From the IMG/VR virus record IMGVR_UViG_3300001685_000001: DNA of 64,000 nt; one strand, written 5' to 3'. The notes below the pieces were generated by a model, which was not told the DNA's origin, did no database searches, and was given only the letters and a program-made list of their open reading frames with translations. The DNA comes from a virus. The position numbers and the translations under genes were made by a program. Positions 2,614 to 51,663 of the stretch are shown one piece after another. Each line of letters opens with the position of its first letter. Within the stretch, counting starts at the first letter, position 1.

Positions 2614-3971
2614 ACTTCTAGTTTTCTTAAATCAAATATCTTCTTCAAATCTACTGATGATTTGTATACTTTACCTGCACCTAATACTTCACTAGTCATA
2701 CCTTTTGGACTTTCTAATACCTTTTGAACTTTACGGTCAAAGATAGATAAGTCATCCATACCTTCTGTTTGGAATTGAGGTAAAGTTGGAAGAGTAGGTG
2801 ATACTGTTTTGAATGATGGAGGTATTGCAGGAGTTGGAGTTTCGAACATTGATAGTTCTCCTATCGCTAAATATGAACCACCGTTATGCAATGACACGTT
2901 TATTCTATAGTATAAATATGTTTTTACATTATTAATATCAAATGTCTTAGTTTGAGAAAGTATCCATCCTGTAATATTCGATTGTGTATCTAAAACATCA
3001 AATAAAATTCCGTCATTTGAACCTTCGAATGTCCAAGACTTAGGATACATGGTTTCTGTTCCTGCTATTGTAGAGCTAGAAACTGAATATTTTACAATCT
3101 TTTTAGGTAATGTAAATTGATACATTAGCCAACCAACAATACCTACTGGTTGCCAAATCGTATCATAACTACCATCAAACGCTTTATACATGCCATATAG
3201 CTCACTACGCTCCGTTGAAGCTGTTACAGTTCCACTAGGGGTAGTTTTACTTGTCATCACTGGTATTGCACTATTGGTGATTGCAGGACTTCCTTGACTC
3301 AACTTCTTATACCCATCACTCAATAAAATGAACGATTTATTTAGTAGTGTGAATAGAGATTCTATTTCTAAAACTGGTCTGAAAGCTCTAGTTGCGTCTG
3401 ACGTTACCACATTACTAGACGAGGTGCTTGTTGAACCTCTAATAATTCGTTTTGTAGAATCTGTTGAAAGTGTCGTACTTGTCCATGAATATATTCCAAA
3501 GTTCCATACATTATTATCTCCTGCTGTAATCGTTCCACCAAGAGTAGAGCCAACAATATATTTATCCCATTCATTATCTTTGTCTGTTGAAACTGTTCCA
3601 CCTGTTAATAGGCGAGTAGCAAATGTATGTTTCAATCCTGTACCATCACTAATTTCGGGTAACATATTTGGTAGTCCACTACCACTTGCGATTCCACGAC
3701 TATTCAGAACATCCAAACTTAAACTGTGTTGGATATTTCTGTCAGCTAAAAGTATCTTCTTACCATTCCAATCTTCAACCATAATGAATCTGAAATATCC
3801 ATTAGGAGTGGCACTTGATGCTACTGGAATCACAGGAATTGCTTCTGCATCAGTCTTAGTTGCTATATCTGAAAATACACCAACTGTGTTAGCTGTTGCA
3901 ACTGTATATTTACACCAAAAGTAATCTCCAACTTTTAGTTTAGATAGATTATTATTTAAAGTTAAAGCCAT
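2607..3971 (-). CDS. Tail fibre paralogue: CLec-like N-domain + discoidin + shared C-terminal motif
   Basis: N-half (RLLTGG...NEWDKY...WT...FRPVLE) is homologous to 4040-4675; has a discoidin domain; C-terminal LGAGKVYK motif is shared with neighbours. Confidence 0.75.
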   Translation of the reverse strand: MALTLNNNLSKLKVGDYFWCKYTVATANTVGVFSDIATKTDAEAIPVIPVASSATPNGYFRFIMVEDWNGKKILLADRNIQHSLSLDVLNSRGIASGSGLPNMLPEISDGTGLKHTFATRLLTGGTVSTDKDNEWDKYIVGSTLGGTITAGDNNVWNFGIYSWTSTTLSTDSTKRIIRGSTSTSSSNVVTSDATRAFRPVLEIESLFTLLNKSFILLSDGYKKLSQGSPAITNSAIPVMTSKTTPSGTVTASTERSELYGMYKAFDGSYDTIWQPVGIVGWLMYQFTLPKKIVKYSVSSSTIAGTETMYPKSWTFEGSNDGILFDVLDTQSNITGWILSQTKTFDINNVKTYLYYRINVSLHNGGSYLAIGELSMFETPTPAIPPSFKTVSPTLPTLPQFQTEGMDDLSIFDRKVQKVLESPKGMTSEVLGAGKVYKSSVDLKKIFDLRKLEVK

Positions 3972-4039: not shown

Positions 4040-4675
4040 TTATGCTTCTTGATATTCGAAGACTGGACGAAATCCATAAGCTCCACTAGTAGTACTTGAT
4101 AATGCAAAAGCTATTTTACCAGTAGTACTAGTTCTTACCCTTTGCGTACTTGGTGCTAAAGCTAAATTAGGGGTATCTTGTGTCCAAGTGCCACTGTTAG
4201 TATAATGAAACACATCGTCTACTGTCTTCCCACTCTGAATCTTATCAGCAGGGAATTTAACAATATATTTATCCCATTCATTATTAGTAGGAAATGCACC
4301 AAATCCTAAATCTGTAGTTGAACTATTTCCATTAGCATCTACATAGGCTACTCCACCTGTAAGGGAACGTAAGCTTCCAACAATACTATCTATTGTTTTT
4401 GGTGTTCCTTGAATTAATTTATTGGTATTCAAGGTGTCCCAAGTTACTGTATGAACCGCTACCCTGTCAGACATCAACAATCCTTTATCTACTTTGATAA
4501 AATAGAAATAATTGTTAGCTGAACCATTTGCAACTCCTGTCAATGGAAATTCAGTAAGACCATTAACTCCTATAACAAACGTCAATCCTGCTTGATATGA
4601 ACAAGCTATATAATCTCCAATTTGCATATCTGCAATCTTCGTTCTTAAAACTCCTGTTGTTGCAGGAACTCCCAT
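4040..4675 (-). CDS. Virion accessory protein, C-type-lectin-like fold candidate
   Basis: SLTGG...NEWDKYI...WTQDT...GFRPVFE; homologous to the N-domain of 2607-3971. Confidence 0.65.
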   Translation of the reverse strand: MGVPATTGVLRTKIADMQIGDYIACSYQAGLTFVIGVNGLTEFPLTGVANGSANNYFYFIKVDKGLLMSDRVAVHTVTWDTLNTNKLIQGTPKTIDSIVGSLRSLTGGVAYVDANGNSSTTDLGFGAFPTNNEWDKYIVKFPADKIQSGKTVDDVFHYTNSGTWTQDTPNLALAPSTQRVRTSTTGKIAFALSSTTSGAYGFRPVFEYQEA

Positions 4676-36784: not shown

Positions 36785-37012
36785 TCAATCCTCAAACTCT
36801 TCATCTACAGGAACTTCTAACGGGAGTGGTTCTAATTCAGATGCTTCATTAATGGTAAAGTTAACTAGTTTATCTTCACCTTCAAATTGCTTAAAGGTAT
36901 CAGATAAAACGTATGTTCCAACCAATTCGCCTTTTTTATATTCTCTTATTAAGTTTTCTTCCCATGAGATTTGACAGTCTTTAAATGCGTAATTCAATGT
37001 TTGTTTTGCCAT
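36785..37012 (-). CDS. YonK-like small protein
   Basis: Size, synteny and resemblance to SPbeta YonK (recalled). Confidence 0.6.
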   Translation of the reverse strand: MAKQTLNYAFKDCQISWEENLIREYKKGELVGTYVLSDTFKQFEGEDKLVNFTINEASELEPLPLEVPVDEEFED

Positions 37013-37088
37013 TCTTTTATCTTCTCCTTTTATTCAACGTTAATGTTGCCATTAACTAATTTTAATAAAACCTTACTTTTATGTATAT

Positions 37089-37182
37089 GAGAGTCCTAAA
37101 AAGAACTCTCTAAGCACTAACAAGGGGAGGTGCTATGCTTATGACCTTTGAGAAGGAAGGTGGAGATAACTCCATAGTATTA
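37089..37182 (-). ncRNA. Candidate C-rich (anti-Shine-Dalgarno-like) small RNA in the tRNA trailer, ending in a hairpin
   Basis: CTCCACCTTCCTTCTC and loop CACCTCCCCTT, then GAGAGTTC-N6-GGACTCTC. Confidence 0.4.
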
Positions 37183-37258
37183 TGGTGACTCAGGAAAGAC
37201 TTGAACTTCCGACACCCTGAGCTTCAATCAGGTGCTCTACCAACTGAGCTACTAAGTC
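37183..37258 (-). tRNA. tRNA-Phe(GAA), unusual G37 C38
   Basis: 76-nt cloverleaf, CCTGA-TTGAAGC-TCAGG, encoded CCA. Confidence 0.92.
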
Positions 37259-37262
37259 ATTT

Positions 37263-37345
37263 TGGTCAGGAATGTTAATTTCGAGTTAACGACCCCCAGC
37301 TTCTGATTTGTTATGCTGGTGCTCTGCCATCTGAGCTAATTCCTG
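37263..37345 (-). tRNA. tRNA-Pro-bodied tRNA-like RNA with a 14-nt anticodon loop
   Basis: Acceptor CAGGAAT/ATTCCTG, A73 and CCA are identical to the tRNA-Pro; stem CCAGC/GCTGG encloses ATAACAAATCAGAA. Confidence 0.8.
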
Positions 37346-37349
37346 TTGT

Positions 37350-37434
37350 TGGCACGAGTTGAAGGAGTTTAACCTCTTGAAAACGGGTTTGGAATCCGTC
37401 AGCATGTACACACGCTTTTAATTCTCTAACTCGC
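37350..37434 (-). tRNA. Degenerate tRNA-Trp(CCA)-like gene
   Basis: ACGGA-TTCCAAA-CCCGT, G73, CCA; ~9-nt insertion before the D arm; T loop TTAAACT. Confidence 0.6.
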
Positions 37435-37439
37435 ATAAT

Positions 37440-37513
37440 TGATACCCCATAGGAGTTTCGAACTCCTGATTTCGCATAGAAAGTGCGATGTCTTACCACT
37501 TGACCAATGGGGC
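37440..37513 (-). tRNA. tRNA-Glu(TTC), unusual T37 A38; 3' end reads ATCA (no encoded CCA)
   Basis: TCGCA-CTTTCTA-TGCGA; T arm AGGAG-TTCGAAA-CTCCT. Confidence 0.88.
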
Positions 37514-37516
37514 ATA

Positions 37517-37593
37517 TGGTCAGGAATGTTGAACTCGAATCAACGACCCCTAGCATCCAAAGCTAGTGCTCTACCAAACTGAGCTAATTCCTG
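37517..37593 (-). tRNA. tRNA-Pro(TGG), unusual A37
   Basis: C1-G72, A73, CTAGC-TTTGGAT-GCTAG, CCA. Confidence 0.92.
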
Positions 37594-37601
37594 TAATAAA
37601 T

Positions 37602-38129
37602 TTATGAAGAATATCTCCATTTAAATCCACCTGCTGTCTTTCGGGTGTCGCCTCTCCAGTCAATACCTCTTACAGCATATAAGATAGTGCTAGGAGATTT
37701 TATATTATTCTTTTTTGATGCTTCAGCCATAGATGGATAGGAAGACATATAGTTGCCATCTAAATCCAATTTATCTACGCTTCTTTGGTTCGATTTTTTA
37801 CCAAGTAAGCCATTCTCTTTTTGATGTTTTAAGTTTTCTGCCTGTGTAATAGCCTCTAAATTACTTATCTTGTTATTTAGTTTATTTCCATCAATATGAT
37901 TTATTTGCATTCCAATACACTTGCTTCCAAAATAAATCACACCTAAAACTTGATGCACTTGTAAGAGTTTCTTTTTAACTTTCACTCGTAAGTATCCAGT
38001 TGAACTACAAATAGTACCATTTGTTCCTTTTGGAGTAGTGATAATACCTTCAATAATGTCATAATTGATATTTTCAAGGTTACTACTTATAAAATTGTAC
38101 ATATCAATAGACATTCCAGCATTACTCAT
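37602..38129 (-). CDS. Free-standing HNH homing endonuclease (HNH_3 + NUMOD1-like)
   Basis: VHQVLG...INHIDGNKLNNKISNLE; C-terminal DLDGN...YPSMAEASK. Confidence 0.85.
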   Translation of the reverse strand: MSNAGMSIDMYNFISSNLENINYDIIEGIITTPKGTNGTICSSTGYLRVKVKKKLLQVHQVLGVIYFGSKCIGMQINHIDGNKLNNKISNLEAITQAENLKHQKENGLLGKKSNQRSVDKLDLDGNYMSSYPSMAEASKKNNIKSPSTILYAVRGIDWRGDTRKTAGGFKWRYSS

Positions 38130-38182
38130 AATTCCATCTCCTGTTATGTGTCAATAAATAGTTTTTAATAGAATATAAAGTG

Positions 38183-38502
38183 TTGTTAGCTAACCAGCCA
38201 AGAGGCATCCAATAGAGTCAATAAACAACCACTCATAAGCCTTTAATCTTGGATTTAATCGAAGTTTTATTCTTAAAAACTAAACGTTGAGTTCATAAGA
38301 ACTTTGAACCTTAACCTTTGAATCTTAAACTTTGAAATTTGAGCTTTTATCCCATATACGCTCTCTGAGTGTAATATAAAGTACATTCGCTTATCCTTAT
38401 TTGGATTCAAATTTTCATCTGTTAGATGTAAAGTTAATTTGGAGAGCTTTACCCTGCTCTCCGATAGGGTGTTTAGTCCATTAGATTTCGATTAACTAAC
38501 AA
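38183..38502 (-). ncRNA. Candidate ~320-nt structured ncRNA (closing helix, pseudoknot, heptamer-repeat domain)
   Basis: 13-bp end-to-end helix, nested 8-bp and 6-bp helices, H-type pseudoknot, no ORF. Confidence 0.75.
38262..38348 (-). repeat. Tandem 7-nt repeats (consensus YAARGTT), 7 + 4 units
   Basis: AAAAGCT CAAATTT CAAAGTT TAAGATT CAAAGGT TAAGGTT CAAAGTT [10 nt] CAACGTT TAGTTTT TAAGAAT AAAACTT. Confidence 0.85.
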
Positions 38503-38519
38503 TGTTATTTAACTAATTA

Positions 38520-39143
38520 TTAATCTTCAATTGTAATTCTTGTAATCGTGTTGCTCTCTGAAAGCGTGAAATCCACTTCCATGTTGAAGTCCTCGATACT
38601 CTTAACCAACTCATTAATCTGTTTCTCCAAGTTAATTGGGTCAATGAAAGTAGCCTCGTTGTCTGCTTTAAAAGCCTTCACAATGTCTTCATGTGACTGA
38701 GCATTAACTTTACCTTCTTTACCGAACAGCGTTTCCAAGTGAGAGTCTAAACGAGCTTTCATCTCATTGTTAATACGGTCAACATGATTTACCACCTGAG
38801 TATAAGTTGAGCGCATTTTACTTAGTAATTGCTCTTCATAAGAAATAGAAGTCTTTCTCTCAATTGCTTCAGCTACCGTCATTTTAACTCCTGCTACCTC
38901 AACAACAGTTGTTGCATTGGAAAGTACAATTGCAGATTTAATTGCGTTTCTGCGTTTTAACAAATCTTTTACTGATTGATAATCTGATTTGGCACGTTTT
39001 TCAACATCTTCTACTGAGCTATATCCAGTAGGCAATTTCTTACCAACTGAGTTACTTCCTAGAACAGCCTCATTGATTGAACGATTAATGCGTGAGTCTA
39101 ATAGCTTTAATTCTGCTAAGCCTCTTGTAATAGTCATTTCCAT
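38520..39143 (-). CDS. Coiled-coil protein resembling the DIP1984 (septicolysin-like) family
   Basis: MTITRGLAELK...IVLSNATT...MTVAEAIERK...VDFTLSESN; matches the recalled LAEAL/N..T/D..L...N pattern. Confidence 0.6.
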   Translation of the reverse strand: MEMTITRGLAELKLLDSRINRSINEAVLGSNSVGKKLPTGYSSVEDVEKRAKSDYQSVKDLLKRRNAIKSAIVLSNATTVVEVAGVKMTVAEAIERKTSISYEEQLLSKMRSTYTQVVNHVDRINNEMKARLDSHLETLFGKEGKVNAQSHEDIVKAFKADNEATFIDPINLEKQINELVKSIEDFNMEVDFTLSESNTITRITIED

Positions 39144-39381
39144 GTGATATCAATCTCCTTTTATTCGCTGATTGCCTAAATGACAACCACATTCCTTACT
39201 GGATATGTACGTGTAATAGTTAGGCATCTTGCAATGATGATTAGCTATTACACTATTTAATTATATGTGATTAAGTAGTTAAACGTAAACCTGTTTTTCC
39301 CTTTTTGGAAATATTAGTGAGGCAAGGGAGAGGAACCTCACTAACTATATTTTGCTTATGTGACTTACATTGTTAACTTTA

Positions 39382-39702
39382 TTATTCTGCTAGTGGTGCT
39401 GCTTTAAGTGCATCTTTAACTGTTTTAGAAATTGCTACTTTAGCTGCATAGTGAGCTGGTACTGTAGTTGGTGTTGGTAGAACCGCTGGGTCTTCACCTT
39501 GAATTCCTGCATAAGTGCGTTCTGCTTTTACATCAACTTTTAAGTTTCCTAATGCTCCAAGTGGTACTCCTACTTGCTGTTCTGTAACTACACGAACGAT
39601 AGTTCCGATTACTGTATCGAAAATTTCCTTAGCGTTTACTTGAGTTGTTCCTAAATCTGTTGCTACCTCTTTAATTAAATCTTTTGTTGTAATTTTTGAC
39701 AT
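39382..39702 (-). CDS. hup: HU/IHF-like DNA-binding protein (YonN/TF1-like)
   Basis: TKDLIKEVA...GNLKV...AERT...PAHYAAKV.ISKTVKD. Confidence 0.85.
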   Translation of the reverse strand: MSKITTKDLIKEVATDLGTTQVNAKEIFDTVIGTIVRVVTEQQVGVPLGALGNLKVDVKAERTYAGIQGEDPAVLPTPTTVPAHYAAKVAISKTVKDALKAAPLAE

Positions 39703-51348: not shown

Positions 51349-51663
51349 ATGGAATACTACATAGAAGATACACAGGAGCATTTAAACGCTTTACAAGGTA
51401 AGCTAATGGAAAGTGAGACGTACTTTCATCTATTACAATCGGTTAATGCTCTAAACGAATTAAATGGATTTGAAGTCTTTAATATGAAACGATTAAAGAT
51501 AGAATACAAGAAATTTAAAAAACAAAAAACAAATGTCAAATACATAAATCAAAAATCAAATTTGGAATATCAAAATTCAAATATTAAAAATGAAACACCA
51601 AAAAACAAATATGAAATATCAAATTCGGAATACCAAAAAGCATATATGAAGTTGCTTTCTTAA
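51349..51663 (+). CDS. Early hypothetical protein
   Basis: ORF track. Confidence 0.65.
   Translation: MEYYIEDTQEHLNALQGKLMESETYFHLLQSVNALNELNGFEVFNMKRLKIEYKKFKKQKTNVKYINQKSNLEYQNSNIKNETPKNKYEISNSEYQKAYMKLLS

Follow-up and report, generated by a model that had tools for sequence, protein, structure and literature searches.

A conserved array of heptamers enclosed in a pseudoknotted phage RNA: a candidate ruler for multivalent protein binding

The virus record IMGVR_UViG_3300001685_000001 of IMG/VR was analysed over a stretch of 64,000 nucleotides, which is called the window throughout. The element considered here is a non-coding RNA (ncRNA) of about 320 nt lying in a 390-nt gap between two minus-strand genes, upstream the gene for a protein of 207 amino acids (aa) and downstream an open reading frame (ORF) for an HNH endonuclease; within it runs a tract of tandem 7-nt units (Table 1). 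A preliminary description of the window had presented this tract as eleven 7-nt units, seven of them contiguous, followed by a 10-nt break and four more, and it was found in just this layout on the minus strand. In the register used there (38348-38262) the first block reads AAAAGCT CAAATTT CAAAGTT TAAGATT CAAAGGT TAAGGTT CAAAGTT, after which come the break CTTATGAACT and the units CAACGTT TAGTTTT TAAGAAT AAAACTT. Read with T first, the tract extends over 38349-38263. The consensus proposed earlier, YAARGTT, is exact in only 3 of the 11 units; the repeat as such is real, and the core shared by the whole family is UYAA-NNN.

Table 1. Coordinates of the ncRNA, of its heptamer tract and of the neighbouring genes in the window
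Feature	Position	Strand	Remarks
Whole pseudoknotted ncRNA (about 320 nt)	38183..38502	-	from covariation and RNAalifold consensus
Closing helix P1	38502-38490 with 38195-38183	-	
Helix P2	38486-38480 with 38213-38207	-	
Pseudoknot	38475-38470 with 38227-38222	-	
5' H-type pseudoknot	38469-38441	-	
Heptamer slots 1-7, T-first: TAAAAGC TCAAATT TCAAAGT TTAAGAT TCAAAGG TTAAGGT TCAAAGT	38301..38349	-	
Break (slot 8): TCTTATGAAC	38291..38300	-	
Heptamer slots 9-12: TCAACGT TTAGTTT TTAAGAA TAAAACT	38263..38290	-	A3 carries 1.6-2.0 bits per slot (26 homologues)
Most conserved RNA motif UCGAUUAAAUCC	38251..38262	-	closes the tract; from alignments; last bases open a CCAAG/CUUGG helix
Gene for 207-aa helical protein, phrog_1491, DIP1984-like fold	38520..39143	-	candidate partner of the tract
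HNH endonuclease ORF	37602..38129	-	fills the space between RNA and tRNA-Pro exactly
tRNA-Pro, tRNA-Glu, tRNA-Phe	37183..37593	-	same strand, downstream of the module

Judged from the window by itself, the evidence for a period of seven is moderate. Tandem Repeats Finder reports only a 14-nt period with 2.6 copies (38300-38336). The identity at lag 7 is 0.49 over 87 nt; for the 49-nt core of the tract the values are 0.62 (lag 7) and 0.77 (lag 14). The observed lag-7 value was equalled in 27 of 5000 shuffles of the intergenic region, and the tract ranks only fifth among the lag-7 places in the window. When scored with a matrix derived from the family, its seven-unit core reaches 46.5 bits as compared to a shuffle maximum of 12.9 bits. 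The second-best array of the UYAA type in the window (20 bits versus the shuffle maximum of 12.9; lag-7 identity 0.66) lies on the plus strand at 51549-51640, within a 104-aa ORF (51349-51663), and reads TCAAAAA TCAAATT TGGAATA TCAAAAT TCAAATA TTAAAAA TGAAACA and so on; it falls in the K/N/Q-rich tail of this small early ORF and may be only a 21-nt coding repeat together with local A-richness.

The weight of evidence from homologues is much stronger than that from the single sequence. Among 37 non-redundant RNAs (less than 90% identical to each other, and including those of T5, phage G and Clostridium phage D-1873) lag 7 was the best period in 34, the mean identities at lags 7, 14 and 21 being 0.50, 0.47 and 0.42, versus about 0.2-0.25 out of phase and background level at lags 5 and 6. 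In 26 of these RNAs the first unit and the invariant motif UCGAUWAAAUCC lie 85-88 nt apart; the others carry hairpin insertions, which are found only at the break (L105, L042 and L069; numbers with L denote individual loci) or between slots 11 and 12. The break itself is 8-11 nt long in homologues and usually starts with UCUU. Period and slot count, which the preliminary description had proposed to compare across homologous loci, are thus both kept, and so is the length.

Within the units, the T-first logo shows U at 93%, C or U at 81%, A at 96% and A (79%) or G (17%; together 96%), followed by three variable bases with G at 58% in position 6. When conservation was measured slot by slot across 26 homologues, every one of the 11 slots was found to be conserved individually and in register, with U1 and A3 invariant in slots 2-4. 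This holds also for the last four units, which had been called degenerate: all four are conserved slots in the same register as the first seven. The units of one RNA, moreover, resemble each other in positions 5 and 6 beyond the expectation from the slot columns (z = 15.6 and 9.1, respectively), and lineages differ in the flavour of their units, which is CAAAG in most, CAGAG in L010, UAUAG in phage G and L038, and CAAUG in L008 and L050-52. The CAAUG group forms a single clade in the protein tree, in which A5 has become U5 in essentially all slots. Units evolve in concert. Positions 5-7 were also considered as codon-like triplets, a proposal that was dropped because the triplets are too similar within one RNA.

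The helices that flank the tract covary strongly. In an alignment of 11 Bacillaceae-type relatives, support was found for the closing helix (13 bp), for a further long-range helix, for a pseudoknot that reaches the 3' domain and for three helices within that domain. In this alignment 88.9% of the cells are paired, compared to 29-49% when the partners are slid, compensatory changes are seen at 21 pairs, and the observed covariation was reached by none of 500 shuffles. The CCAAG/CUUGG helix that follows the tract covaries as well. The earlier view that the units are held in the central loop of the RNA agrees with this structure, since covarying P1, P2 and the pseudoknots enclose the tract and no conserved pairing exists inside. 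The accompanying view that the units pair poorly with each other and are probably single-stranded is not supported by single-sequence thermodynamics, the paired probability being 0.59 in the tract and 0.60 elsewhere. What the comparison of homologues does support is the absence of conserved pairing: predicted tract pairs differ from RNA to RNA, no pair of tract positions exceeds a mean pair probability of 0.08 across the 26 homologues, and in the RNAalifold consensus the whole tract is open. A hairpin across the break, which can be drawn in the window (AGTTC/GAACT), is not kept in L005 or L006 and likewise has a mean pair probability of at most 0.08.

The RNA matches no family in Rfam. With the Rfam covariance models only tRNAs were found in the window at gathering score, and nothing relevant was found for the 390-nt gap at E ≤ 10. 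GOLLD, ROOL and the other Rfam families gave no match at the RNA, either in the window or, at gathering score, in 32 related loci. RAGATH-27 (RF03100) gave no match at E ≤ 10 in 36800-39400 of the window, none at gathering score in the 32 related loci; the records of T5, L008, L051 and L052 were likewise without a match at the RNA. A group I intron was considered on account of the HNH ORF and rejected, since Rfam gives no match to one and a complete gene and a tRNA lie on either side. No account of the RNA was found in the literature on T5 ncRNA, heptanucleotide repeats, T5.085, DIP1984 or GOLLD/ROOL.

Megablast of 20 kb returned matches to tRNAs only, and a DNA search of a phage collection gave a sole match, to Clostridium phage D-1873, which lies exactly over the tract; there too the tract follows a homologue of the 207-aa protein (43% identity). 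Loci were collected by way of the protein, from viral, genome and metagenome collections and from GenBank phages, and the RNA was sought with a profile of its 3' half. It was found in 86 of 102 such loci, always on the strand of the gene and just downstream of it. Sixteen loci gave no match: 11 of them offer less than 160 nt beyond the gene, three are truly without the RNA and two look degenerate, so that among loci with enough downstream sequence the count is 86 of 91. Conversely, a pattern scan for the RNA only yielded 118 candidates, 28 of which are true RNAs by profile, and the protein gene is directly upstream in 27 of these, the remaining one being too short upstream to tell. Members include T5, the Bacillus phages BCP8-2 and G, Brevibacillus phage Jenst, a Pseudomonas phage, the viral contigs L038 and L039 and many uncultured phages, with hosts ranging from E. 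coli to Clostridium, Lactococcus and Sericytochromatia bins. In T5 the element occupies an unannotated gap (NC_005859 43142-43504) directly downstream of T5.085. The element in the window belongs to an undescribed, widespread phage RNA-protein module.

The module often has tRNA genes as neighbours: these are present in the fetched flanks of 23 of 43 loci, every time on the same strand. In seven loci (L008, L220, L071, L088, L172, L105 and L163) the start of a tRNA lies no more than about 20 nt from where the nhmmer match to the RNA ends, so that processing by RNase P would define the end of the RNA. In the relative L045, tRNA-Pro lies 57 nt past the end of this match with no intervening ORF, and for this reason the HNH ORF of the window is probably a mobile (homing-endonuclease) insertion. 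No terminator was found between the 207-aa gene and the RNA in the window; an intrinsic terminator is visible by eye after the RNA in some other loci. Locus L071 holds two tandem copies of the 3' half of the RNA with the tract (2328-2580 and 2847-3092), both with a long insertion between slots 11 and 12; the first is followed after 8 nt by a tRNA-Met and the second by another tRNA-Met about 130 nt downstream. Other structured RNAs were seen just upstream of the protein gene in two loci, namely a skipping-rope RNA (RF02924, 63 bits) at 2645-2732 of L011 and a transfer-messenger RNA (tmRNA; RF00023, 104 bits) at 925-1284 of L100. In D-1873 (L001) an unannotated 1.2-kb gap after the RNA contains, at 4190-4450, the T-arm-like sequences GGTTACTGATTCAAATCC and GGTGAGTGATTCGATCCCC, which suggests unannotated degenerate or tRNA-like genes.

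The 207-aa protein is modelled with a pLDDT of 90 as a helical bundle with a small beta-sheet. Only one structural match stands out, namely 3KDQ from Corynebacterium diphtheriae, whose function is unknown (Foldseek E = 4e-3; VIA Z = 9.7 over 151/152 residues); all others are generic helical bundles. There was no match in Pfam or NCBIfam and none in a sequence search of the PDB, and the Atlas search gave hypothetical proteins with DUF6847 as a weak lead. Records of T5-like phages, including T5.085 (NC_005859 43505-44143), carry the annotation "tail fiber" for phrog_1491. This annotation is not supported by the model, which is a helical bundle of DIP1984-like fold, and it is probably a propagated misnomer. 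In front of the protein gene, units of the same kind recur: an array of three units is present 9-32 nt before the start codon in 7 of 28 lineages (T5, L009, L010, L011, L087, L088 and L007), where about 1.4 lineages were expected (60 nt before the start, top 5% of control windows). In T5, L010, L011 and L088 the units run right up to the Shine-Dalgarno sequence or into it. For example, the leader in T5 (L034, 2940-2990) reads TCAAATC TTAAACT TCATATA AGGAAG; such leaders hold three to five units. The leader units may form an autoregulatory operator.

What could a tract of this kind be for? A strict 7-nt register is most simply accounted for by identical repeated partners, each of which reads about four bases and spans seven. 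A partner bound in many copies fits the four conserved and three free bases, the fixed slots, the concerted change, the tolerated hairpins and the absence of conserved pairing. The near-obligate pairing of gene and RNA, together with the leader arrays, makes the co-encoded protein the likeliest reader. With moderate confidence we take the tract to be a multivalent ruler, on which a partner, probably the co-encoded protein, would bind cooperatively or as an oligomer. The earlier suggestion of an iterated protein-binding ruler is in this respect partly supported by the conserved period, slots and length, the concerted units, the enclosure, the gene linkage and the leader units; binding itself and the identity of the partner are the parts of it that we infer. 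In such a ruler about 12 single-stranded slots of 7 nt would be read as U-Y-A-A, with three bases largely free. The slots are arranged in two blocks of seven and four joined by a short linker, and the covarying closing helices and pseudoknots hold them as a loop. The tract would recruit many copies of one partner, perhaps as a ring or as a cooperative filament, and the number of slots would set the stoichiometry of the partner, most likely the DIP1984-like protein encoded immediately upstream. This protein may repress its own translation via the leader units, with the tract in the RNA as the main site of high valency, and the biological role possibly concerns the phage tRNA cluster.

Several points weigh against this interpretation. 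The concerted change of the units could have arisen from homogenisation of the repeats. The protein leader in the window and in its closest relatives has no unit array, no RNA-binding fold is recognised in the protein, which matches 3KDQ best, and at least three loci bear the protein without the RNA. In the CAAUG clade, where all units changed, no otherwise-invariant residue of the protein has changed with them; the protein differences are only T/S4L, R7K, A164Y and S195Q, and as a single evolutionary event the clade carries no statistical weight in this question. A further-reaching proposal is that the tract fixes about 12 copies of the DIP1984-like protein in a new phage ribonucleoprotein (RNP), present in T5 and hundreds of other phages. 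The particle would be freed from the transcripts of tRNA operons when the tRNAs are processed and would have its effect on tRNA or on translation, for instance by arranging or shielding the phage tRNAs. This would be a new class of RNP with the code UYAA every 7 nt, and we put it forward only tentatively, as less probable than the ruler itself.

The array may, first, be bound by many copies of a different factor, in which case the RNA would serve as a sponge or as an assembly platform. Candidates are a universal host protein (S1, cold-shock or KH), the ribosome, or a phage single-strand binder resembling gp32 with a 7-nt footprint. The gp32 protein of T4 covers about 7 nt and nucleates on a pseudoknot beside unstructured UUAAA repeats. 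Indeed, the periodicity, the conservation of the slots and the concerted change demand a repeated reader without naming one, and the missing RNA-binding fold of the upstream protein and the lack of conserved residues in it that co-vary with the flavour of the units speak in the same direction. However, with hosts from E. coli to Sericytochromatia a host reader would have to be nearly universal, and the near-obligate adjacency of gene and RNA and the arrays at ribosome-binding sites favour the co-encoded protein. We regard a different reader as unlikely, although it is the best of the alternatives.

Somewhat less likely still is a role of the RNA alone, in which units of the U-N-R type, resembling U-turns, build a regular tertiary or quaternary architecture such as a homo-oligomer, with the protein acting as a chaperone or being unrelated. 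U1-N2-A3 would fit the UNR signature of U-turns, and the RNA, like ROOL and GOLLD, is a phage RNA located beside tRNA genes. It should be noted, however, that no covarying pair involves the tract, that position 5 has changed in all slots without any RNA partner changing, and that the RNA is not matched by the ROOL and GOLLD models of Rfam. The strict linkage to the protein would also be left unexplained.

The third alternative takes up a speculation of the preliminary description, that the units are decoys of the size of an anticodon loop. In the register UUCAAAG (position 7 followed by positions 1-6) a unit would mimic the 7-nt loop of a tRNA, either the T-loop (U54-U55-C56-A57-A58) or an anticodon loop (Y32-U33-[YAA]-R37), and an array of such loops would soak up a host enzyme that cuts or modifies tRNAs and would thereby protect the neighbouring phage tRNAs. 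The position of the module in or beside tRNA clusters on the same strand would suit such a function, as would the consensus unit, which in this one register is a T-loop sequence: the equivalents of U33/U55, A57 and A58 are conserved, and that of R37 is present in 69%. The resemblance is nevertheless weak. The units are without closing stems, the likeness to a T-loop or a tRNA-Leu(YAA) loop comes from three bases, the only positions that are really conserved, the equivalents of C56 and U54 are found in only 47% and 43%, and in the CAAUG clade the equivalent of R37 becomes U. We know of no anticodon nuclease that targets tRNA-Leu(YAA) across such a host range. A decoy array is consequently improbable in our view, and the further speculation that the tract is a template finds no polymerase or reverse transcriptase nearby and inexact copies. 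An element without RNA function, such as iterons, bent DNA, a promoter UP element or a neutral remnant of slippage, is the least credible of all, for although the tract is A/T-rich and intergenic and the statistics of the window alone are modest, its orientation is always that of the gene and the tRNAs, covarying RNA helices lie on either side of it, it keeps U1, A3 and A4 slot by slot with positions 5-7 free among loci whose proteins are only 26-70% identical, and it has a length of 85-88 nt that slippage would not preserve.

Phages that infect Proteobacteria, Bacillota and other hosts keep a 7-nt register through some 86 nt, which points to a strong shared constraint that no described RNA family explains. 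If the tract counts subunits, as a multivalent ruler would, this would mean a new mode of RNA-protein recognition and a function for a widespread protein that is annotated as "tail fiber" or as hypothetical, and it could bear on why phages pair tRNA clusters with large ncRNAs. Since the element is present in T5, the hypothesis can be tested directly in a phage that is a classic laboratory model.

In its presumed way of working the tract resembles the arrays of the HutP, TRAP and gp32 operators; it lacks the defining features of the first two and shows those of the third in part. Other systems with repeats are more distant. Type III antitoxin RNAs (ToxI-like) consist of tandem 34-45-nt repeats beside the gene of an endoribonuclease toxin, whereas the units here are of 7 nt and the neighbouring gene has no match to a toxin family. 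Replication iterons are strand-independent direct repeats in DNA, about 17-22 bp long and close to the gene of an initiator, whereas the 7-nt units keep to the strand of the gene and the tRNAs and are enclosed by RNA helices that covary. The sponges CsrB and RsmZ expose GGA motifs in hairpin loops at irregular spacing and titrate a protein that binds ribosome-binding sites. They share with the tract that many copies of a short motif on one ncRNA could titrate a protein, and differ from it in that here the period is strict, the number of slots is fixed, no conserved hairpins are found in the tract and GGA is not conserved in the logo. ROOL and GOLLD are described as RNA-only cages (10.1101/2024.12.08.627333). 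Like the RNA of the window they are large, ornate, phage-borne ncRNAs beside tRNA genes; unlike it they have neither a dedicated protein gene nor a heptad tract, and by Rfam there is no match in sequence or structure between them.

Closer are the arrays that are read by an oligomeric or cooperative protein. In TRAP, a beta-sheet protein, 11 (G/U)AG triplets with a period of 5-6 nt and a GAG/UAG core wrap around an 11-mer ring, and TRAP arrays overlap the Shine-Dalgarno sequences of other genes. A repeat number of about 11, equal to that of the TRAP subunits, and the leader units that abut the ribosome-binding site in T5 and three other lineages, recall this system. TRAP-binding RNA has 9-11 triplets with spacers of 2-3 nt; here the best lag is 7 in nearly all RNAs, and no TRAP-like protein is present at the locus. 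The operator of T4 gene 32 combines a pseudoknot with irregularly spaced UUAAA/UAAA repeats, both within the 5' leader of the gene that encodes the regulator. Autoregulation of gp32 through the pseudoknot is mentioned in PMC10690425. The likeness lies in a pseudoknot next to an unstructured A/U-rich UYAA(A) tract, in a 7-nt footprint that would suit cooperative coating, and in possible autogenous control. The differences are that spacing is strict here and that a separate RNA, 3' of the gene, encloses the tract in a loop; the adjacent protein, too, is not a single-strand-binding protein with an OB fold, and leader arrays are confined to a quarter of the lineages.

By analogy, the closest documented precedent is HutP. 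In the hut terminator RNA of Bacillus subtilis this protein binds UAG-N4-UAG-N4-UAG in two linked blocks, one on each of the two faces of the hexamer, and the bound RNA is single-stranded, wraps around the hexamer and functions as a cis-acting antiterminator in the leader (PMC2425495). The two systems are not the same. HutP reads UAG with four spacer bases in 3+3 units, whereas here the core is U-Y-A-A with three free bases and with G at position 6 in little more than half of the units, and 7+4 (11-12) slots are present; the tract is part of a stand-alone pseudoknotted RNA downstream of a gene rather than of a leader antiterminator, and the adjacent protein, with its helical DIP1984-like model and no Pfam match, is not HutP. 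What they have in common is an exact period of 7 nt, a short core that is read, spacers that are independent of sequence, and two blocks joined by a linker.
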